From contig OY762428.1 in assembly GCA_963665665.1 (NCBI GenBank), positions 544,001 through 608,000 on the forward strand: a stretch of DNA of 64,000 bases, given 5' to 3'. The notes below the pieces were generated by a model. The model did no database searches. It was not told the origin of the DNA and was given only the letters and a program-made list of their open reading frames with translations. Every line of letters begins with the position of its first letter. Position 1 is the stretch's first letter. A program made the position numbers and the translations under genes. Source of the stretch: Candidatus Kapaibacterium sp. Its GTDB lineage: Bacteria; Bacteroidota; Ignavibacteria; Kapaibacteriales; UBA2268. Positions 1,168 through 59,745 of this stretch are shown one piece after another.

Positions 1168-1660
1168 ATTCTTTCCTTGCATATAGTCCCTGTATTACCA
1201 TAAGTAATTTACAAAATTCAGAGAATATAAAGCAATTTATATACCAAAATATAATTCAATAAATACCTGTAGTACCTACAATCGCTATAAGCAATTAAGC
1301 AAAAATTTATGGAGAAACACCGAATCAACACTATGAAGAATTACTATTGTAACCTTTTCTTTAGCAAAGTGTAGTTTATAAAAATGAAAATTTTATCGAT
1401 TCAGGAGATAAATCACGTACTAATTCATTATGGAAATAATATTGTTGCTTTCTGATTGCAGGAATCATACAAGCCCAAAACGGGATTTTTTTTATTAATA
1501 CTTTACAAATACAATTAATGATATAATTTTTCACACAAAAAAAATCACTCAAAATAAGCCCGGGCATTTCTTACCTACAATTTACCCAAAACCAAATACC
1601 CCCTCCCGGGCTTAAATATTTCAATCATTGATTTTGATAATCCCCCCCTCAACGCTTCCC

Positions 1661-1775
1661 CCTCATTACGAACTTGTACTTGGTAATGCAGTTTTCTTTT
1701 GAATCTGAGCTTCTCTATTTCAAAGTAGTACTTTGCAGGAAATATTTCTTCCCAAGCGGGGGCTTGGGAAGGAGG
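1661..1775. repeat. ~115-bp multi-hairpin MITE/REPIN-like repeat, copy A
   Basis: Several short hairpins (CTTCCCAAGC-GGGG-GCTTGGGAAG, CAAAGTAGTACTTTG); its reverse complement aligns along its length with 12851-12964. Confidence 0.8.
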
Positions 1776-1781
1776 GAAAGA

Positions 1782-2090
1782 TTTTCTGCTATTTTGCATG
1801 GATTCTTCGATCGCTTCGCTCCGTCAGAATGACGGATGGGAATGTCCCCCGCTGGCGGGGGTGTCCGAAGGACGGGGGTGGATTTCCGGAAAATTCCCCT
1901 CGTTGAGGGGTGGCGAGCGCAGCGAGTCGGGGTGGATTCTTTTTCCGATTGAAGTTATTATAGTTGGCAGAAGTAGAATGTCATTCTGAGCGCCAGCGAA
2001 GAATCCATTCTTCATACATTATCTGCAAACAAAGATGGATTCTTCGGTCGCAAGCTCCGGAAGCCTGCCCCGACGTGTCGGGGAATGACA
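1782..2090. repeat. Cluster of REP-like GC-rich hairpins (GTCATTCTGA..GAAGAATCC type and CCCCTC..GAGGGG type)
   Basis: GGATTCTTCG..CAGAATGAC (1800-1833), CCCCCGCTGGCGGGGG, CCCCTCGTTGAGGGG, GTCATTCTGAGCGCCAGCGAAGAATCC (1979-2006); homologous modules at 29404-29680 on the opposite strand. Confidence 0.8.
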
Positions 2091-2289
2091 ACATAATACC
2101 TCCTTCTCCCGCCCTATCCCCCCGTTTTTCCACCCCAATTAACCAAGCACCGGACTTAATTCCCCATCCTGTGGTATCAATGAATCGAATAATTTCCTTA
2201 ATTCAATGCTGTTTTTAATCAAACCCCTGATGTTGGGGCTAATCGCTTTGTTGTCGGAGCTTTAAACTGTCTTGGCCGGAGTTATTGAA

Positions 2290-2607
2290 CTACTGTTTGG
2301 CCTTATTGTAGTGAAATTTGGCCTCATTGAACACTTGGTTGATCTTACTGAACACTTGGTTGATCTTACTGAACACTTGGTTGACCTTACTGAACACTTG
2401 GTTGACCTTACTGAACACTTGGTTGACCTTACTGAACACTTGGTTGGCCTTATTGAACACTTGGTTGACCTTATTGAACACTTGGTTGGCTTTACTAAAC
2501 ACTTGGTTGACTTTACTGAACACTTGGTTGGCTTTACTGAACACTTGGTTGATCTTACTGAACACTTGGTTGGCTTTACTGAACACTTGGTTGATCTTAC
2601 TGAACAT
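2290..2607 (-). other. Putative 105-aa heptad-repeat ORF MF(SKINQVF)13NEAKFHYNKAKQ
   Basis: ATG in the central palindrome; same start, C-terminus and stop as 28971-29204; expression unproven. Confidence 0.35.
2329..2601 (-). repeat. Tandem array, 13 x 21 nt (GAACACTTGGTTGA(T/C)CTTACT)
   Basis: Units start every 21 nt from 2329 to 2581; minus frame reads (S/N)K(I/V/A)NQVF heptads. Confidence 0.95.
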
Positions 2608-2989
2608 GTTCTTTGCCTCCGACCAAGAGTTCAATGCCTTCAAACAAGGCAGCAATGACTTCGACCAAGGGGTCAATGACTTCAACCAAGGCATCATTAT
2701 CTTCAACCAAGGCATCAATAACTTCGACCAAGGTATCAATGACTCCGACCAAGGCATCAATGACTTCGAACAAGGCAGCAATGACTCCGACCAAGGCAGC
2801 AATAACTCCGACCAAGGCAGCAATGGCTCCGACCAAGGCAGCAATAACTCCGACCAAGGCAGCAATAACTCCGACCAAGGCAGCAATGACTCCGACCAAG
2901 GCGGCAATAACTCCGACCAAGGCGGCAATGACTCCGACCAAGGCATCAATAGATTCGACCAAGGCGTCAATAGATTCGAACATTGGTGA
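2606..2989 (+). other. Putative 127-aa heptad-repeat ORF MFFASDQEFNAFKQGS(NDxDQGx)n
   Basis: ATG in the central palindrome; first 17 residues identical to 28679-28972 (-); expression unproven. Confidence 0.3.
2612..2989 (+). repeat. Tandem array, 18 x 21 nt (AATRACTYCGACCAAGGCAKC consensus)
   Basis: Contiguous 21-mers counted from 2612; plus frame reads N(D/N)(S/F)DQG(S/I/G) heptads. Confidence 0.95.
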
Positions 2990-3002
2990 AATGCCGCTGC
3001 CC

Positions 3003-3113
3003 CTTCCTACCTCCCCCCGGCCCCCTCCTTCGGAAGGAGGGGGAGTTAATCTTATGATATTTAACTTCTTATCCCCTCCTAATGTAGGAGGGGATTATAG
3101 GGGTGGTTTTCTT
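3003..3113. repeat. GC-rich hairpin doublet (CCCCCTCCTTCGGAAGGAGGGGG / CCCCTCCT..AGGAGGGG)
   Basis: Near-identical reverse complement at 28528-28638; interrupts the 21-nt array, which resumes at ~3118. Confidence 0.85.
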
Positions 3114-3333
3114 GCTTTGACTCCGACCAGGGCAGCAATAACTCCGACCAAAGCAGCATTATTTTTTAAACATTGGGAATATGTCGGGGAATGCGGGATT
3201 GAAGTATATTATAATTCGGACGGAGGAAAAATGATCATAACAATTCCGGGTAAAGGCACAGCCCTGCCTGAATAGTGTAATTATTACATATATTAAACCC
3301 GGAAAATAAAATCTGTTTGAAATTGTTGAGTGA

Positions 3334-28247: not shown

Positions 28248-28970
28248 CCCGATAGTTACAACCCGATAAATAGTAGTTTAAAAGAATTTAATTTTCTTTT
28301 GAGTAATATAGTAAAAATATCAATAAATTAAAAAGGGTTCGAAAAATAAATAACAACCCCCGATAGAAATGTTCTCCCGGATAATCCGGGGCAGCAAAAA
28401 GTGAAAAAACTGCCTGTCCGCAACGTTTTCTTCTTCAATCCTGCAAACCTTCGGAAGGTTTGTATTCAAATTCAATATCCACGTGCTCTATCTCGTGGAT
28501 AAGGGAGGCAAAGCCCCGAAGCAAAGAAAGAAAACCACCCCTGTATTCCCCTCCTCCCCGAGGAGGGGATAAGAAGTTAAATATCATAGAATTAACTCCC
28601 CCTCCTTTCGAAGGAGGGGGCCGGAGTGAGGTAGGAAGAGGCGGAAGCAAAGCACCAAAGTTTTAACCTATTGCCGCCTTATTCTTCTTCAAAGCCCGCC
28701 CCTTCGGGGAGGGTTTGGGAGGGGTCGATGCCATTGCAGTAATGTTTTGCTTTATTGACGCCTTGGTTGAAGTCATTGATGCCTTGTTCGGAGTCATTGC
28801 CGCCTTGTTTGAAGATAATGAACTCTTGTTTGAAGCTATTGCACCGATGTTTGAAGCTATTGCACCGATGTTTGAAGATAATGAACTCTTGGTCGACACT
28901 ATTGCAGCAATGTTTTGCTTTATTGCTGCCTTGTTTGAAGGCATTGAACTCTTGGTCGGAGGCAAAGAAC

Positions 28971-29204
28971 ATGTTCAATAAGGCCAAACAAGCGTGGGAT
29001 AATGTCAAACAAGCGTGGGATGAAGTCAAACAAGCGTGGGATGAAGTCAAACAAGCGTGGGATGAAACCAAACAAGCGTGGGATGAAACCAAACAAGCGT
29101 GGGATGAAGTCAAACAAGCGTGGGATGAAGTCAAACAAGCGTGGGATGAAGTCAAACAAGCGTGGGATGAAGCCAAATTTCACTACAATAAGGCCAAACA
29201 GTAG
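28971..29204 (+). other. Putative 77-aa heptad-repeat ORF MFNKAKQAW(DEVKQAW)nDEAKFHYNKAKQ
   Basis: Homologous position and frame to 2290-2607; expression unproven. Confidence 0.35.
28977..29165 (+). repeat. Tandem array, 9 x 21 nt (GATGAAGTCAAACAAGCGTGG)
   Basis: Direct reading; plus frame reads DE(V/T)KQAW heptads. Confidence 0.95.
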
Positions 29205-29403
29205 TTCAATACCTCCGGCCAAGGCAGTTTAAAGCCCTGCTAACAAAGCAATTAGCCCAAACATCAGTATTCTGATTCAAAACAGCATTGAATTAAGGAA
29301 ATTATCCGGTTCATTGAAACCACCGGATGGGGAATTAAGGCCGGCGGCCTGTTCATTTGGGTGGAAGAACGGATAAACTGAGCAAAAGAATGAGGTGTTA
29401 TGT

Positions 29404-29680
29404 TGTCATTCTGACGGAGCGAAGCGACGGAAGAATCCATGCAAAATAGCAGAAAATTTATGAAGAATGGATCCTTCGCTTCGCTCAGGATGACATCCCG
29501 GCTCTGCCCTCGTCATATTCAATAGCCACGTGCTTTAGCTCGTGGATAAGGGAGGCTAAAAAAAGAAACCACCCCAGCCTGTCCCGACGTGTCGGGAACT
29601 CGCTGCGCTCGCCACCCCTCAACGAGGGGAATTTTCCGGAAATCCACCCCCGCCCTTTCCCGACTCGTCGGCACCAGCGG
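29404..29680. repeat. Cluster of REP-like hairpins
   Basis: GTCATTCTGACGGAGCGAAGCGACGGAAGAATCC...GGATCCTTCGCTTCGCTCAGGATGAC, CCACGTGCTTTAGCTCGTGG, CCCCTCAACGAGGGG; same modules as 1782-2090 in a different order. Confidence 0.8.
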
Positions 29681-29715
29681 AAGTTGGAATTTGATCAATA
29701 AGGCAGGTAGAAAAC

Positions 29716-51888: not shown

Positions 51889-54800
51889 TTAAATCTCTAC
51901 TATCATCTTCTTCAGCTTGTCAGTCTGATCATGAAGGTAATGGGAGAGACGCAAAGCAAGGTCCGGATGTTTGGTAAGCAGCGTCTTCAGTTTGTCTTTC
52001 GGCAGCTTCATTATTCTCGCGGAACTTATTACCGGCTGGGCTGTAACAGAGGATTTGTCATCCCACACAGCACCTTCACCGAAAATCTCTCCTGTACCAA
52101 TTACATTGATAGTACCGAGCCATCCCATTACCGAGTGCCTCATCTGCTCGACAGCGCCCTCACGAATAAGGTAAACATCCCTGTTCATATCATTTTCCCA
52201 AACAACTTCCTCATCGGGATCGTAATATCTTTCCATGGCAATGCCGGCTAATGATGAAATAGCCTCGTCATCCATTTCTTTGAAGAGATCAAGTGAATTC
52301 AGGAATTCTATTCTCTGCTGCAATGAATTAACCACCATATTTCTCATTTTATTTTCATCAGGTTTCTTCCATTCAAACCCGCTGAGTTCAAGAGCTTTGG
52401 CTGTTTTATCAGAAAGGATATCCATCTTTGTGGCGTTGATTTTATCGAAGTCCTCGCTCAGCCAACCCTTGTGAAGCATTATTGCCTCGATAAACGGCCT
52501 GAATCCATCTCTTTCGAAATTTGAATAAAGGAAGTGAATGAATTCTTTCAGGTCGAATGTTTCCACGTTAAGGTTCAACTTACTGCCGGATAATATGTCT
52601 GAAATATCAACCTTCATCGGATTTTCGATGTGGTAAGTACTGTTCAACAGGTTTTCCCTTCCGGAAAGAGTAAGCACGGCATTACTGACGTAATCAACAA
52701 AAGAAAAGTCGTAATAATCACCCTTTAGAACAGCACCAATATTTATAAATGCACGGAAAATGTTATAAAATGCATTGTCATCAATATTCTGCTGGTGAAC
52801 TCCTGTCTCCGAATTATAAACTATATTTCCTATACGATAAATATTGGTTTTTATCCCTTTTTCACGGGCTGCGATAACCCTTGTTTCGGCTTCGAGTTTT
52901 GTTTTAACATAATAGTTATCTACTTCCTGGCCAATATCACATTTATCCTCGGAAAATAGAACAACATCATTGCCGGGAACATGTCCGAGAGCAACTGAAA
53001 TTGTCGAAATATGGTGAAAATCTTTTTTACGTCCGTCACCGGCAAAGGCAAGAATATTATCGGTTGCTTTCACATTAGCCCGATAGAAATCTTCGTAAGC
53101 GCCGTAGTGCTTAACAATCGCAGCTGAGTGCCATACACAGTCGCATTCTTCACAAAGCCGCGAATAATTTTCATTATCCAAACCCAAACTGTCTTCGGCA
53201 ATATCTCCGCATATTACCTCCACACCTGATTCCTGAATATCAATATAATCATTGGGGAAATAGAATTTCAGTTTATTTTCCAGCCTTTGCATTGCTTTAT
53301 CATTACTGTCGCCTCGCACAATGGCAGTAATTTTAACACCTTCTTTGCGGCTTAAATCCCTTAGCAGATAAATACCGAGATAACCTGTAGCCCCTGTTAA
53401 CAGTATATGCTTATAGCCATTGTGTACAGTCAGGTCAAGGCAGGCAAGCTGGCTGACTTCTTTCTGATATTCCTCTTCCTCGGTTTTCAATTCCGGTACT
53501 GTTCTGTAATCAACATCATTGAACTTAAATTCTCTCAGTTTTTCAAGCCTGATTTTCAGGTTATCCTCAGATTCATTGATATTTTCTGCAAGTTCTTCGA
53601 TTGTCGGATATTCAAAAATGTCATTTACCCGGACGTCGAAGTCCTTCTGGAGTTTAGCCGTCAGCGCCACGGCTTTCAGGCTGTGTCCGCCAAGTGAGAA
53701 GAAATCGTCTTTGATACTTATCTTATCAAGCCCGAGAATTTCCATCCATGCGTTAGCGATCTTTTCTTCCTTTTTATTTCGGGGAGCAACAAATTCTGCC
53801 CCTGAGGAAATTTTATCACCCGGTTCGGGAAGCTGGCGACGGTCAACCTTGCCGTTTGAGGTAAGCGGAAATTCATCCATGTGGATAAAGTATGACGGAA
53901 CCATGTAGTCCGGCAGATCCTTATGGAGAAATTCCCTGAGTTCATTAACAGTGATCTCATTTTCAGATACATAATAGGCACAGAGATATTTCTCGCCGTG
54001 TGTTTCTTCTTTAGCCAGAACAACTACTTTATTTATTTCATTATGTTTCAGCAGTTTATCTTCAATTTCTCCCAGTTCAATCCTGAATCCGCGTATCTTC
54101 ACCTGGAAGTCTATCCTTCCAAGATATTCCATTTCGCCGGACGGCAGCCTTCGGGCAAGGTCGCCGCTTCGGTACATTCTTTCTTTAGGGCGGTATGGGT
54201 TGGGAATAAATCTCTCCCCGGTTAGTTCTTCACGATTCATATAGCCACGTGCAACGCCTTCACCTCCAACACAAAGCTCTCCTGCAACTCCGTAGGGGAC
54301 GATATGCTGTTCAGTATCCATTATATAGCAGGTCAGTGTTGGTATAGGAAGCCCGATATTACTGATATTATTATCAATTTCATACTGACCTATTTCTTTA
54401 TAAGTCACATGTACGGTTGTTTCAGTGATACCATACATATTAATAAGTTTTGTTTCCGGGTAGCGTTTGTGGAAATTGTTCAGCAATATCGGCTTCAGAG
54501 CCTCACCGCCAAATATTACAAAGCGAAGGCCAAGTAATTTCTCTGTAAAATGTTCCTCGGTTTCTATCAGGTTATAGAATGCCCCGGGAGTCTGATTCAG
54601 TACTGTCACTTTTTTATCTGAAAGCAATTTGATAAAATCTTCCGGGTTTTGTGCTTCTTCCTTCGGAACAACCACAAGCTTACCACCGAACAGCAGCGGC
54701 CCGTACATTTCCCAAACCGAGAAATCAAATGAGAATGAATGGAATAAAGTCCAGACATCATGCTCGTCAAAATCAAACTGAAAGCGGCTGTTTTTCAGAA

Positions 54801-57800
54801 GGCGGACAAGATTGTGATGTTCAAGCATAACTCCCTTGGGTTTGCCTGTTGATCCTGAAGTATATATGATATAAATCATATCATCCGGACAGGATATTGG
54901 TTCAAGATTTTCACATTTTTCAGAGTAAAGTGCCTGATCATAAACATCAATGATTTCACCCTCAAAATCCAGCCTTTTTCCAAGTTCACTGCTTGATAGA
55001 AGAATCTTCGTACCACTGTCCGACAACATGAAATCAATTCTTTCCGGTGGATATTCGGGAATAACCGGCAGGTAAGCCCCGCCAGCTTTGATAATAGCCA
55101 GGGCACTGAGAACCATTTCCATTGAACGTTCCAGAAAAATGGCTACAATTGTATCAGCTTTAACGCCTTTACTTCTTAGTATTTTCGCAAGGCTGTTTGC
55201 TCTGTCGTTAAGTTCGCTGTATGTCCATGATTTGTCACCCAGCTCGATTGCTGTTCTTTCAGGAAAGCGTCTTACTGTTTCCTCGAATATCTCGTGGGCA
55301 GTTTTATTCTCCGGCCATTCTGCTTCCGTGTGGTTAAATTCATATAAAAGCGCTTTAAGTTCGTGGGAATCAATCATCTTCATGCTGCCAATTCTCATTT
55401 CCGGAGCCAGGCACATTTCGTTCATTATATTTTCCAGGTGGCGACACATTCTTGCAGCTGTTTCTTCTTTAAACAGGCTCGTTCTGTAGTACAGTTTTAG
55501 GTTGAGCATTTCATTCTGCTCTGTAAAGGTAAATGAAAGATCAAACTTAGCGCTGTGATTATTGAATTCCTTAATAACTGAATTTATTCCTTCAGATTGG
55601 AATTCGTAGCCTCCCATATTCTGCAGAACAAGTATTACATCAAATAATGGATTACGCCCCGATTCCCGGTTAACATTTATCTTATCATAAATATTCTCGA
55701 TCGGATAGTTCTGGTTTTCATACACGTCAAACAGTGTTGCTTTAACTTCATTAATCAGCTGAATAAAAGTCTTGTCTTTTTCGGGGAGGGCCCTGACTGG
55801 CAAAGTATTTACGAACATTCCGATCATATCCTCGGCCTCCTCTTTCAACCTGCCGCCCGTGGGCGAACCAATAACAATATCATTCTGATTTGTATATTTT
55901 GCCATAAGAACATACAGAGCAGACATAAGTACAACGTTCAGCGTAGTGTCCTGAGCTTTGGCTATCATATTGATTTTATTTGTAAGTTCAGGCATTATAT
56001 CAATTTCAAAAATATCGCCTTCATAATCGACCGATGCCTTTCTCGGCATATCTGTAGGAAGATCGAGTGTTGGTACATCAGCAAAGGTTTTTAGCCAGAA
56101 TTCCTCCTGTTTATGTATTTCATCGGACTGAATAATTTTATCTTCCCAACTAACATAATCCTTAAAGTGCAGTTTAAGAGCTTCGGGAGTTTCAGCGTTG
56201 TAAAATGCTGAAAGGTCCTTCATAAGAATAGTTAGTGAAATCCCGTCGAAAATAATATGGTGGAAATCCATCAGCAGGCATACTTTTTCTTTGGATATTC
56301 TTAGAAGTTTGAACCTTGCAAGGGGAGCCTTCTGCAGGTTGAACGGCCTGATAAATTCCAGCATTTTATCATTTATTTCATTATCCGAACAGTCGGCGAT
56401 CAAACGTTTTATCTTTGCCTTGGGATGAACTACCTGAACCGGAGTTCCATTTTTAACCTCAAATGATGTCCTTAATGCTTCGTGCCTTTCAACTAGTTTT
56501 TCAATAGCCTCGCTCAGGCGGGAAAGGTCAACATTTCCTTCAAGAGTTAAAATGCAGGGCACATTATATGTAGTACCGATATTTTTCATTTGCTCCAGTA
56601 CGAACAGCTGCCTTTGAGCGGATGATGCAGGGTAGAAGTTCGCAGGTTCTGCCGGAGTAAGTTCAATTATTTCATGCTTATCAGTCTGGTCAATATATTC
56701 TGCGAGCTTGGCAACTGTAGTCAGGTCAAAAAGGTTTTTAAGGCTAATTCTCAGGCTGAATTTTTTTTCTATCCTTGCCTGTAGAACAACCGCTTTAAGG
56801 GAGTGTCCGCCAAGATCAAAGAAATCATCATTTTTGCCGATCTTATCAATGCCAAGAATTTTTCCGAAAATTGAAGCAATGATTTTTTCTGTTTCGGTTT
56901 CAGGCTCTATATACTCTGTTTTTGATTCTTCAATAACTTTTGGTTCCGGCAGGGCCTTCCTGTCCACTTTGCCAACCGGAGTAAGCGGAATGGAATCAAT
57001 CCTCATCAGGTACTGCGGTATCATGTAATCCGGCAGAACCTCCCTTGCAGCAGCCTTAATTTTACCGGCATCCATTTCTTGATCTGCTATATAATAAGCG
57101 CAAAGATAAACACCCCGGGTATCCTGAATATCAACAACCACGGCATCTTTGATACCTTCAATATTTTTAATGGCTGTCTCAATCTCGCCAAGTTCAATCC
57201 TGTACCCCCTAACTTTAACCTGGCGATCAATCCTGCCAAGGTATTCAATCGTTCCGTCCGGCAGCCAGCGGCAAAGATCTCCGGTCCGATACATTCTTTC
57301 GCCGGTAACAGGGTTAGTAACAAAAACGGCATCTGTTTTTTCCGGCAGGTTCAGATAGCCTCTGGCAAGCTGTGCCCCTCCGACACATAGTTCACCCGGA
57401 ACTCCAATAGGCTGTAAATTGCTGAATTTATCAAAAATATAGCAAGGCGAATTCTTCACCGGATAGCCGATTGGAATATTCTTTTTAATTTCATTAACAT
57501 AGTAATATGTTGATATAACCGTATTCTCTGTCGGGCCGTAGCCATTAATCAGATCGAAACCGGTTTTTTTATATGACCTTAATTTCTCTCCGCCTGTAAT
57601 CAGCCAACGCATACTTTTATTCTTGGTAATCTCCATAAATTGTTCGCCAAACTGGGTTATCATCACAGCGGTTGTAATCTTATTCCGGACTATATAATCC
57701 TCAGTCTCAACAATAGACTTCCTTATCTCTTCAGATAAAATATGAAGTTCAGCACCGGCAAGCAACTGAGGGAAGATTTCAATTACGGAAGCGTCGAAAC

Positions 57801-59745
57801 TAAATGCCAAAGTTTTAAGGCAGCGGTCATTTTCATCCAGTTTGCCTTCTTCAATCAGCCACTGGCACATGTTAACAAGGGAATGATTCTCAATCATTAC
57901 TCCTTTGGGTTTGCCTGTGGAGCCTGATGTATAAATAATATAAGCAAGGCTATCAGGGCCGGACTCGGATGGTATTTTTTCCACCAAAAGGTAGTTGTTT
58001 CTGTCATCCAGATCAATTACAGCTCCGTTAAAATCAATTTCTTCGTATAAATGTCTTTGTGATATTAATATAGGAGCGGCGCTGTCGTCCAGCATATATT
58101 TTTTTCTGTCCGCAGGATATGAGGGATCTATCGGAACGAAACAGCTGCCTGATTTCAGTACTGCAATAAAAGCAACAATTATTTCTACTGACCGCTCAGC
58201 AAGAATTACAACAGGAACATCCGGACCGCCTCCATGTTCAATTATCCTTGATGCCAGGGCATCGGCCTTTTTATTTAGTTCAGCGTATGTAAGCTTATCA
58301 TCTTTGAATACTACAGCAGTTCTGTCAGAGAACATCCGGGCTGTCTTAGCAAACAGATCCTGGTAGGTAAAATCATGTTCAGGCAGTTCAACCGGCTTAT
58401 TGAAATGGTTCAGTATAATTGATTTTTCATAAACAGGCAGAATATCAATATCTGACAGTGCTATTTCCGAATTTTCAATCACCTGGAAAACGATTCGGTT
58501 AAGTGTATCGATAATTTCAACGGCTTTTTTATCGTTTATCAGATCAAGGTTGTAATTGATATTGAATTCAATAGGATTAAGTTCAGGATTATTATAATCA
58601 TAGGAAATAAACGCACATAATTCGCCCGGCCCTACATAAGAATTCACACTCGTAGATGTTGTTTCATTATCCAGAGTTTCAAAATTCTGTGCCAGGCTGA
58701 TAGTTACCATTTCATCAAACTTACCATGAATATTTTCCAGGGCATCAATTATTAGGTCGTAGGACAAATTTCCATGATCCACATATTTCTTAATTTTATT
58801 ATTAACAAATTTTATCAAATCAGAAAATGGGCCGTTAATATCTGATGTGATTCTGAAAGGCAGGTAGTTAACAAACATGCCAAAAGTATCTTTGAACTCC
58901 TCGGGCCGGTTTGCTATTGGAATGCCAATTGCAATATCGTTTTTGCCGCTTATCCTTGTCAGGTAAACATACATAGCAGCAAGGTAAAGTTTAAAAGCGG
59001 ATGTATGATGCTCACGTGTAAATTCAAATATTTTTTCACTTTCCTCTTTAGAAAGGAAAATAGTTTTAAGGCCGTTGGCCTTGCTTTCCATTTTATCAAA
59101 AGGATTAACCGCAACTGGTTCGGGAAGCGTTGAAAATTCTTCAAGCCAATAATTTTTATCCTCTTCGGCCCTGTTGCTTTTCAGGTAATTACTTTCATGG
59201 CCGGCAAAATCAGTATATGATTTTGTAATATTGGGTTCAGGTGTAACTCCTGCTTCAAATATTTGAGCTAATTCTGATATACGGTCTATCATCAGTTTCA
59301 TACACCAACCATCAACAATGGTGTGGTGAATATTCAGGTAATAGCCGTTTTTTCCGTCAGGAAGCTTTAAAAGCACAAATGAAAAAAGGTCAGAATCGAA
59401 TAGTTGAATTGGCTTACGGGAAATTGATTTTACCCATTCATTCATTTTAGTATTGTTTGTTTTTTCCCGTTCTTCAGATCCGGAAAAATCGATTATTTCA
59501 AATTCTCTTTCTTCATATTCAGCAATATATTGAAATATTTTATCTTCAACTTTAGTATATCTTATTCTTATACCTACGGTTTCATAAATGAAAAAATTGA
59601 TTGCTTTGGAGATTATTTCCGGAGAATAATCTTTTTTGAACCTTACTATCCTTGGAATATTCCACAAGGCGTTTTCCGGTTCCAGCAGGTCTATAAATAG
59701 CAGCCTCATTTGCGGGTGCGAAATCGGAATCAATTCTTTTTCCAT
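51889..59745 (-). CDS. Two-module NRPS C-A-T-C-A-T-R with C-terminal cNMP-binding-like domain
   Basis: HHTIVDG and HHIIFDG (C); YTSGSTGKPKG x2 (A); LGGHSL x2 (T); TGATGYLG and YVKTK (reductase); LDLF..M...I..LA...VYLI.EG.V...GEIFGE (CAP/Crp fold). Confidence 0.93.
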   Translation of the reverse strand: MEKELIPISHPQMRLLFIDLLEPENALWNIPRIVRFKKDYSPEIISKAINFFIYETVGIRIRYTKVEDKIFQYIAEYEEREFEIIDFSGSEEREKTNNTKMNEWVKSISRKPIQLFDSDLFSFVLLKLPDGKNGYYLNIHHTIVDGWCMKLMIDRISELAQIFEAGVTPEPNITKSYTDFAGHESNYLKSNRAEEDKNYWLEEFSTLPEPVAVNPFDKMESKANGLKTIFLSKEESEKIFEFTREHHTSAFKLYLAAMYVYLTRISGKNDIAIGIPIANRPEEFKDTFGMFVNYLPFRITSDINGPFSDLIKFVNNKIKKYVDHGNLSYDLIIDALENIHGKFDEMVTISLAQNFETLDNETTSTSVNSYVGPGELCAFISYDYNNPELNPIEFNINYNLDLINDKKAVEIIDTLNRIVFQVIENSEIALSDIDILPVYEKSIILNHFNKPVELPEHDFTYQDLFAKTARMFSDRTAVVFKDDKLTYAELNKKADALASRIIEHGGGPDVPVVILAERSVEIIVAFIAVLKSGSCFVPIDPSYPADRKKYMLDDSAAPILISQRHLYEEIDFNGAVIDLDDRNNYLLVEKIPSESGPDSLAYIIYTSGSTGKPKGVMIENHSLVNMCQWLIEEGKLDENDRCLKTLAFSFDASVIEIFPQLLAGAELHILSEEIRKSIVETEDYIVRNKITTAVMITQFGEQFMEITKNKSMRWLITGGEKLRSYKKTGFDLINGYGPTENTVISTYYYVNEIKKNIPIGYPVKNSPCYIFDKFSNLQPIGVPGELCVGGAQLARGYLNLPEKTDAVFVTNPVTGERMYRTGDLCRWLPDGTIEYLGRIDRQVKVRGYRIELGEIETAIKNIEGIKDAVVVDIQDTRGVYLCAYYIADQEMDAGKIKAAAREVLPDYMIPQYLMRIDSIPLTPVGKVDRKALPEPKVIEESKTEYIEPETETEKIIASIFGKILGIDKIGKNDDFFDLGGHSLKAVVLQARIEKKFSLRISLKNLFDLTTVAKLAEYIDQTDKHEIIELTPAEPANFYPASSAQRQLFVLEQMKNIGTTYNVPCILTLEGNVDLSRLSEAIEKLVERHEALRTSFEVKNGTPVQVVHPKAKIKRLIADCSDNEINDKMLEFIRPFNLQKAPLARFKLLRISKEKVCLLMDFHHIIFDGISLTILMKDLSAFYNAETPEALKLHFKDYVSWEDKIIQSDEIHKQEEFWLKTFADVPTLDLPTDMPRKASVDYEGDIFEIDIMPELTNKINMIAKAQDTTLNVVLMSALYVLMAKYTNQNDIVIGSPTGGRLKEEAEDMIGMFVNTLPVRALPEKDKTFIQLINEVKATLFDVYENQNYPIENIYDKINVNRESGRNPLFDVILVLQNMGGYEFQSEGINSVIKEFNNHSAKFDLSFTFTEQNEMLNLKLYYRTSLFKEETAARMCRHLENIMNEMCLAPEMRIGSMKMIDSHELKALLYEFNHTEAEWPENKTAHEIFEETVRRFPERTAIELGDKSWTYSELNDRANSLAKILRSKGVKADTIVAIFLERSMEMVLSALAIIKAGGAYLPVIPEYPPERIDFMLSDSGTKILLSSSELGKRLDFEGEIIDVYDQALYSEKCENLEPISCPDDMIYIIYTSGSTGKPKGVMLEHHNLVRLLKNSRFQFDFDEHDVWTLFHSFSFDFSVWEMYGPLLFGGKLVVVPKEEAQNPEDFIKLLSDKKVTVLNQTPGAFYNLIETEEHFTEKLLGLRFVIFGGEALKPILLNNFHKRYPETKLINMYGITETTVHVTYKEIGQYEIDNNISNIGLPIPTLTCYIMDTEQHIVPYGVAGELCVGGEGVARGYMNREELTGERFIPNPYRPKERMYRSGDLARRLPSGEMEYLGRIDFQVKIRGFRIELGEIEDKLLKHNEINKVVVLAKEETHGEKYLCAYYVSENEITVNELREFLHKDLPDYMVPSYFIHMDEFPLTSNGKVDRRQLPEPGDKISSGAEFVAPRNKKEEKIANAWMEILGLDKISIKDDFFSLGGHSLKAVALTAKLQKDFDVRVNDIFEYPTIEELAENINESEDNLKIRLEKLREFKFNDVDYRTVPELKTEEEEYQKEVSQLACLDLTVHNGYKHILLTGATGYLGIYLLRDLSRKEGVKITAIVRGDSNDKAMQRLENKLKFYFPNDYIDIQESGVEVICGDIAEDSLGLDNENYSRLCEECDCVWHSAAIVKHYGAYEDFYRANVKATDNILAFAGDGRKKDFHHISTISVALGHVPGNDVVLFSEDKCDIGQEVDNYYVKTKLEAETRVIAAREKGIKTNIYRIGNIVYNSETGVHQQNIDDNAFYNIFRAFINIGAVLKGDYYDFSFVDYVSNAVLTLSGRENLLNSTYHIENPMKVDISDILSGSKLNLNVETFDLKEFIHFLYSNFERDGFRPFIEAIMLHKGWLSEDFDKINATKMDILSDKTAKALELSGFEWKKPDENKMRNMVVNSLQQRIEFLNSLDLFKEMDDEAISSLAGIAMERYYDPDEEVVWENDMNRDVYLIREGAVEQMRHSVMGWLGTINVIGTGEIFGEGAVWDDKSSVTAQPVISSARIMKLPKDKLKTLLTKHPDLALRLSHYLHDQTDKLKKMIVEI

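Follow-up and report, generated by a model that had tools for sequence, protein, structure and literature searches.

Dispersed 21-nt-phased repeat elements in a Kapaibacterium genome and a candidate partner gene family

A 64,000-nt stretch of the Candidatus Kapaibacterium sp. chromosome (hereafter the window) contains two copies of a repeat that keep the same conserved frame and carry different tandem arrays of 21-nt units. How can one frame hold different arrays at different loci? The initial annotation of the window read the pattern as locus-specific amplification of units drawn from a shared library, possibly by a programmed system of repeat writing or shuffling.

The two window copies and their family in the genome

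The similarities on which that reading was based are present in the sequence. The central 56 nt of copy 1 (2601-2656, reverse complement) match 28922-28977 at 56/56 positions, and the 40-nt outer boundary (2283-2322, reverse complement) matches 29172-29211 at 40/40. The ~240-nt flank can be aligned between the copies, its first 195 nt being 87% identical. TRF reports 13.3 × 21 nt at 2328-2606 (92% matches) and 9.2 × 21 nt at 28985-29177 (95%), in agreement with the 13 and 9 units originally counted. The two units quoted for these arrays have the same base at 13/21 positions when counted on the sequence, and the heptads quoted for the other arm are found in the ORF translations. The description of each array as internally homogeneous holds approximately: copy 1 has 9 distinct units among 13 (the commonest occurs three times) and copy 2 has 3 among 9 (the commonest occurs six times). 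The copies lie in opposite orientation and consist of the following parts.

Copy 2:
28521..28646, + strand, double-hairpin module of 126 nt (6 × 21), in phase with the grid and recurring in other copies
28647..28730, + strand, outer left-arm units, one with a 42-nt hairpin insert that keeps the phase
28731..28961, + strand, left array of 11 mosaic 21-mers, 10 of them distinct, in inverse orientation to the right array
28962..28982, + strand, junction unit J1; long copies have a 567-nt AT-rich interior at the same place
28983..29171, + strand, right array of nine class-C units
29172..29402, + strand, conserved flank of 11 degenerate 21-mers, the first 195 nt indel-free among 51 copies
29403..29660, + strand, cluster of hairpins beyond the grid, which we take to be REP-like; their order varies between copies and indels occur

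Copy 1:
2092..2322, - strand, conserved flank on a degenerate 21-mer grid
2323..2595, - strand, right array of 13 class-A units
2596..2616, - strand, junction unit J1
2617..2994, - strand, left array of 18 mosaic 21-mers (16 distinct)
2995..3162, - strand, hairpin module of 126 nt in phase with the grid, plus two outer units of left type

Both copies are intergenic, with no helical-family gene (see below) beside either. The neighbours of copy 1 are a TPR gene and a small upstream gene pair; those of copy 2 are a gene for a PAS histidine kinase (1349 aa) and nuoC. Unrelated palindromic hairpin families are stacked at both element ends in variable order (window 1575-2090 and 29403-29700). A search of the window against Rfam gave no match. 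Elsewhere, at 51889-59745, the window encodes a 2618-aa non-ribosomal peptide synthetase that has two adenylation domains and ends in a reductase-like region.

The genome carrying the window (G000) is closed, 5.46 Mb long, and has 38.6% GC. The element's flank has 54 BLAST matches in it, and short-read contigs over the element reach tens of times single-copy depth (the best runs possibly come from the same sample as the window); the repeat is therefore far beyond chance and no assembly artefact. Leaving out one diverged match that lacks arrays (c35), there are 53 full copies, so the window pair does not stand alone, as the initial annotation had allowed it might. These copies take up ~53 kb, or ~1% of the genome, and a search with the interior profile adds two more long copies, which brings the total to ~55. 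Two copies with a truncated flank (c16 and c30) were excluded from flank statistics. Eleven copies contain the exact 40-mer anchor and four the exact 56-mer; thus, the anchors are not special to the window pair.

In the orientation of copy 2, an element runs from hairpin modules through the left array, the interior, and the right array, which is inverted, to the degenerate flank and a hairpin cluster. The two arrays are diverged reverse complements of each other, agreeing at 11.8/21 positions at the best rotation and at ≤7.4 at others. The 567-nt interior (~16% GC) is present in 14 long copies; in the other 39, the short ones, its place is taken by one of three junctions, J1 in 26/39. We also considered whether the short forms have evolved to avoid fold-back pairing and rejected this, because the short copies are slightly more complementary (12.2-12.7 vs 11.5 of 21).

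Shared termini or terminal inverted repeats were not found: the commonest left end is common to 4/53 copies and the commonest right end to 3/53, crude figures, as many right ends lie beyond the 600-nt window used. The ends merge into the hairpin clusters, and the duplicated pairs c48/c52 and c10/c21 include flanking DNA. None of the read contigs spans an array. No strand bias against replichores was found among the copies. Between convergent genes lie 22/53 copies, a count made with an ORF filter that dropped long proteins and missed the 1349-aa kinase beside copy 2. Outside G000, the 40 relatives' genomes contain weak partial matches in 2/40, a plasmid collection has no match to the flank or boundary, and metagenome and viral contigs have no exact boundary match.

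The genome also contains IS-like families, a Y1 transposase, and DUF559 and GIY-YIG genes; the latter two are, presumably, candidate movers of the hairpin modules. Three identical tandem DUF559 genes lie beside copy c15 (G000:C1:1354482-1356566), and two small GIY-YIG genes are in tandem at 1891413-1891992. A 370-aa transposase-like gene adjoins the left arm in c10, c21, c22, and c24, within ~90 nt in three of them, and its recurrence suggests a preferred target.

Unit classes and the 21-nt grid

Right arrays of the short copies are built from four unit classes, and the class with which an array starts is set by the junction: J1 leads into A (18 copies) or C (8), J2 into B (9), and J3 into D (4). 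Average identity between units is 0.888 inside a single array, 0.879 across loci that share a class, and 0.694 across classes, which differ by multi-base block changes; A and C units are alike at 13-14/21 positions. With classes A and C starting this many arrays, homogeneity is a property of the class and not of the locus, and the notion of locus-specific amplification is not supported. What separates the arrays of copies 1 and 2 is their membership of two genome-wide classes, A and C respectively, and not amplification of a private unit at each locus. The other half of that reading, units from a shared library inside a conserved frame, is borne out by exact twins at other loci (for 553/703 right-arm and 566/802 left-arm unit occurrences) and by evident exchange between loci.

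Nine of the 39 short-copy right arrays are mixed. Six contain a single class switch (from A to B in two arrays, from A to D in one, from D to B in one, and from D to A in two); of the other three, one has just a lone odd unit and two are patchy. In the flank, r2 is 0.24 for sites 1-5 nt apart, 0.077 at 6-20 nt, and ~0.04 beyond 20 nt (permutation p = 0.0002), and four gametes are present in ~70% of distant site pairs. Four gametes are also seen in 6/10 pairs of multi-base alleles, for which recurrence by mutation is unlikely. Among short copies, flank haplotype is unlinked to array class (p 0.43-0.50). In recent duplicates, unit number is the fastest change: c48 and c52 have ~1.45 kb in common, a stretch that takes in a host gene's end and a run of 14 identical left units, but contain 16 vs 12 right units; between c19 and c20 the difference is one right unit.

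Slipped-strand mispairing and ectopic recombination are established mechanisms. Given the class switches, the decay of linkage, the four gametes, and the change of unit number in duplicates, slippage combined with ectopic in-register recombination very probably explains the array differences. All changes seen fit these two processes, and the hallmarks of a programmed writer, as the initial annotation had proposed, did not emerge: there is no RVT_1 match, no adenine-biased change, and no fixed termini. The 99.5% complete genome gave 0 matches to PF00078 (RVT_1) in a search whose control was positive in 3/14 genomes and which a highly diverged reverse transcriptase could escape. Adenine-specific variation was not found in the interior, where changes per consensus base are 0.33 for A, 0.31 for T, 0.63 for G, and 1.0 for C. 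A CRISPR array was also considered and rejected, as the units stand head to tail and are reused across loci, in place of a constant repeat with unique spacers, and Rfam has no match in the window.

The grid itself extends across the whole element. A scan of every offset puts the left and right arrays a multiple of 21 nt apart in 53/53 copies. Phase is kept by the nearest left units of every copy (c5, c34, and c45 break phase further out), and the 42- and 126-nt hairpin modules sit in phase as well. Within the interior, identity at lag 21 is 0.51 vs 0.374 ± 0.02 in shuffled sequence; each of the six frames contains 13-26 stops. The fourteen interiors, 84-95% identical, align without gaps. Interior and flank together have accumulated 413 substitutions and 0 indels, compared to 66 substitutions and 5 indels in the neighbouring hairpin (0/413 vs 5/71 events, p = 6e-5). 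The grid is thus likely to be constrained at the DNA or RNA level. Conversion between copies may purge some of the indels; selection on grid length is what we infer.

No coding signal was found in the element. One frame of the right array is stop-free in 37/39 short copies, but three further frames are just as open, having stops in 0, 0, and 1 of 39 copies. The distinct changes comprise 11 synonymous, 27 non-synonymous, and 2 stop-creating ones vs 47, 193, and 12 expected, so stops are not avoided. A frame under purifying selection, as in heptad-repeat coding genes, was not found in the right arrays.

Genes behind 21-periodic leaders

Clustering of ORFs in the genome revealed a family of six near-identical 304-aa genes and two longer relatives. 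The predicted structure of a 429-aa family protein consists of long helices followed by two fn3 domains (full-length pLDDT 87), and the helical part alone, modelled from a single sequence, reaches only pLDDT 44.5. Two fold searches with the predicted structure found no catalytic fold; both were filled by fn3 matches and barely probed the helical part. A PDB sequence search with a helical-family protein gave nothing under E 0.1, and no Rep or ParB-type domain was found in it.

The six 304-aa genes are part of cassettes of ~2 kb with AT-rich 21-periodic leaders and a common 3′ end just past the stop. Two are IS-split at the gene start, and one has a deletion.

G000:C1:4924663-4925577, 304-aa cassette
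G000:C1:4943213-4944127 (L015), 304-aa cassette
G000:C1:3453483-3454397, 304-aa cassette
G000:C1:4629096-4630010, 304-aa cassette
G000:C1:163860-164747, 304-aa cassette
G000:C1:860840-861379, 304-aa cassette

A 20-nt motif lies 402 nt before the 304-aa gene start and 430 nt before the end of the element's long-form interior, so that the start of the left array roughly corresponds to that of the gene. At 30/30 AT-rich loci with this motif, among them element interiors and gene leaders, lag 21 scores above lag 20. The colinear score between interior and leader is 177, vs 121 ± 13.5 for in-phase block shuffles (maximum 170 of 150 shuffles) and 143 on the opposite strand, and the matches concentrate at invariant columns (83/124 vs 27/65, motif included). 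Outside the motif, identity is weak, at 53-54% vs 43-51% on other phased diagonals, and an HMM search with the interior did not recover the gene leaders at E ≤ 1e-3. The motif also has 2 matches in metagenome contigs; both lie inside unrelated genes without 21-periodicity and were dismissed as chance.

Upstream arrays precede 6/8 family genes in G000 vs 9/400 in the background, one of the six positives being an adjacent family element. Two of the eight genes touch an element: c15 lies ~420 nt upstream of a 416-aa family gene (G000:C1:1351435-1353343, L013), and the 3′ end of a 304-aa gene borders directly on c46.

A second 21-nt array family in the genome comprises 38 arrays of two related unit types, which are sometimes adjacent; besides L014, it occupies ~30 other loci, for example:

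G000:C1:2118199-2119905 (L014), second array family
G000:C1:235702-236291, second array family
G000:C1:461520-461811, second array family

Here an array and leader stand before the 429-aa gene, and ~21 further leader copies have no family gene behind them, which provides a direct precedent for gene-less copies. There are also orphan AT-rich 21-periodic tracts that contain the 20-nt motif and neither family arrays nor a gene; the one at 2032-2034 kb is IS-split and has a different 42-nt array.

G000:C1:1194085, orphan motif tract
G000:C1:1732907, orphan motif tract
G000:C1:2032548, orphan motif tract
G000:C1:2358452, orphan motif tract
G000:C1:2399608, orphan motif tract
G000:C1:2666435, orphan motif tract
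G000:C1:3765289, orphan motif tract
G000:C1:5074635, orphan motif tract

Profile matches to the gene family are numerous in relatives: 47 in genome G018, 28 in G009, and 21 in G033, some being second pieces of one gene. We sampled the 40 top-scoring copies, 15 control stretches, and further loci; one duplicate protein and loci with little flank were left out. A 21-periodic tract was present ≤900 nt upstream of 49/65 family copies (36/65 loci come from three genomes and were chosen by best score, and kin are not independent) vs downstream of 1/63. The positives bear 15/24 genome labels, which may overlap. Among controls, the tract was found at 3/155 ORFs, or 3/37 of those with long gaps. Upstream arrays were detected for 4/12 copies of subfamily S1, 40/46 of S2, and 5/7 of S3. 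S1 is closest to the G000 genes, and its 4/12 outside copies with an array give p = 0.05 against long intergenic controls. The subfamilies were connected by hhalign (S1-S2 94.8%, E 5.5e-8; S2-S3 99.6%).

Diverged paralogs occur by the dozen in these genomes (G018 L059-L078, G009 L079-L088, G033 L089-L094), with a median identity of 39% among 13 in G018. Nearly every one of them has its own array of five to 16 21-nt units of unrelated sequence, mostly 20-260 nt from the start codon. The units of the 13 G018 paralogs are no more alike than shuffles (9.65 vs 9.44 of 21). A truly locus-specific case of the same frame with different arrays thus exists in relatives, upstream of the gene family, and the same period with unrelated units recurs upstream of this one family in several families of the phylum.

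An assignment of the genes to DUF6261 was not obtained. PF19775 is absent from G000 and from 48 family members, and hhalign of the family against a thin, three-sequence DUF6261 profile gave a probability under 1%. An Atlas similarity of 0.81 to DUF6261 is a lead only, and a remote kinship is conceivable; the upstream periodicity scores of three true DUF6261 loci are 0.18, 0.08, and 0.05. In the literature, we found no description of 21-nt arrays before helical(+fn3) genes, in a search that covered mostly open-access papers.

Competing explanations and known systems

Overall, we consider it reasonably probable that the ~55 dispersed non-coding elements share one 21-bp grid, with right arrays that differ by genome-wide class and have likely been resized by slippage and mixed by recombination. 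The balance tips slightly toward their descent from, or kinship with, a cassette composed of an array, an AT-rich leader, and a helical(+fn3) gene. The element itself probably derives from that cassette by loss of the gene, a reading with moderate support. Once all copies are seen, the apparent cassette replacement in the window is ordinary. What is new is a multicopy helical(+fn3) family with upstream 21-periodic arrays whose units are unrelated from locus to locus in one genome.

The history of the element may be reconstructed as follows. The gene of a cassette of array, leader, and gene would have been lost and a second array added in inverted orientation, and the element would have spread into the spaces between genes, some copies moving together with flanking DNA. 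The long form would have come first, and in-phase loss of the interior would have given rise to the short forms. Each unit class could have expanded once, then spread and undergone repeated exchange. Slippage would resize the arrays, and in-register recombination or conversion between copies would mix them. The grid, at two DNA turns, is probably kept by in-phase binding of a protein, its putative function. A tentative extension, possible but speculative, is that an elongated helical(+fn3) protein polymerises on a 21-bp lattice and reads its period, not its sequence. Lattice and gene together would form an undescribed class of elements in the Bacteroidota lineage, and the ~55 elements would then be its non-autonomous, gene-less derivatives, nucleated at the conserved 20-nt motif.

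It is rather unlikely that the element is a purely selfish repeat of the MITE or BOX kind with an internal minisatellite, its period a by-product of slippage and its leader likeness convergent or due to a hitchhiking fragment. The restriction to one lineage, the embedding in hairpin clusters, the lack of strand bias, and the existence of published modular leader-array-tail repeats, as far as the available portions of PMC4596501 and PMC3049150 describe them, agree with such a repeat. Yet shared termini were not found, and zero indels in a non-repetitive AT-rich grid would be hard to obtain from slippage alone, though conversion could purge some. Also against it stands the recurrence of this period, in units that are unrelated, before members of one gene family in several of the phylum's families.

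Enzyme-driven repeat writing or cassette exchange, possibly carried out by the helical family or an unrecognised enzyme with a 21-nt step, is improbable. Three junction types and the 42- and 126-nt hairpin modules all keep phase, conversion tracts look very short, and the 13 G018 paralogs have units no more alike than shuffles; these points speak for it. Against it stand the missing RVT_1 match and adenine bias in G000, classes common to many loci, and mixed arrays that resemble crossovers; the predicted protein, long helices plus fn3, likewise offers no catalytic fold in searches that barely probed the helical part. That the arrays encode small heptad-repeat peptides diversified by unit swapping is more doubtful still: classes A-D do read as amphipathic heptads in the largely stop-free frame, with an in-frame ATG or TTG at each junction, but other frames are as open, stops are not avoided, the same grid crosses the stop-rich interior, array units of relatives have no common peptide character, and NCBIfam matches are sub-threshold only.

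The derivation from a gene-bearing cassette, which we favour, can be set against systems already known. Plasmid iteron arrays and the centromeres sopC and parC are helically phased direct repeats located beside an AT-rich tract and a binder gene. They serve as a working analogy; the element, in contrast, is chromosomal and multicopy, its unit sequence is not conserved, and no Rep or ParB-type domain was found in the protein of the linked family.

The element is multicopy, non-coding, and intergenic, as MITEs are. BOX of Streptococcus resembles it in having conserved end modules around a variable tandem module and in clustering with other repeats, and alternative internal modules occur in S. 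suis; the accessible part of that work (PMC3049150) presents one module orientation and proposed IS-like termini and describes no element-wide 21-nt phase. BrickBuilt of Porphyromonas gingivalis is closer: also from Bacteroidota, intergenic, and multicopy, it has a leader, a variable-number minisatellite, and a tail. According to the portion of the report available (PMC4596501), it is made of one 23-nt unit with IS5-like terminal inverted repeats, whereas our element has two opposed arrays, several classes, three junctions, a length constraint along the whole grid, and no shared termini that we could find.

The element belongs among the non-coding 20-21-nt satellites of bacteria. It consists of tandem 21-nt units in at least four copies and is non-coding, and the two array families of this genome share a period and not a sequence. 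In the sections of PMC8161180 that could be consulted, such satellites likewise combine a constant 21-nt period with variable sequence, are species-specific and mostly non-coding, and occur as several families per genome (two here). The same sections note the length of two helical turns and suggest protein binding, only as a guess, and call these constant-length satellites enigmatic. In the element, the period spans a composite of 0.5-2 kb whose arms are inverted, whose AT-rich interior is free of indels, and whose hairpins sit in phase. The described part of that work names no linked gene family, and here a candidate is named, which makes the question of satellite binding directly testable. 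The genome, moreover, offers a natural series of gene-bearing, long gene-less, and short gene-less forms in which the origin and spread of a satellite can be traced. If the lattice proposal were true, a helical protein that reads the period would explain satellites of constant length and free sequence and give their binder a name.
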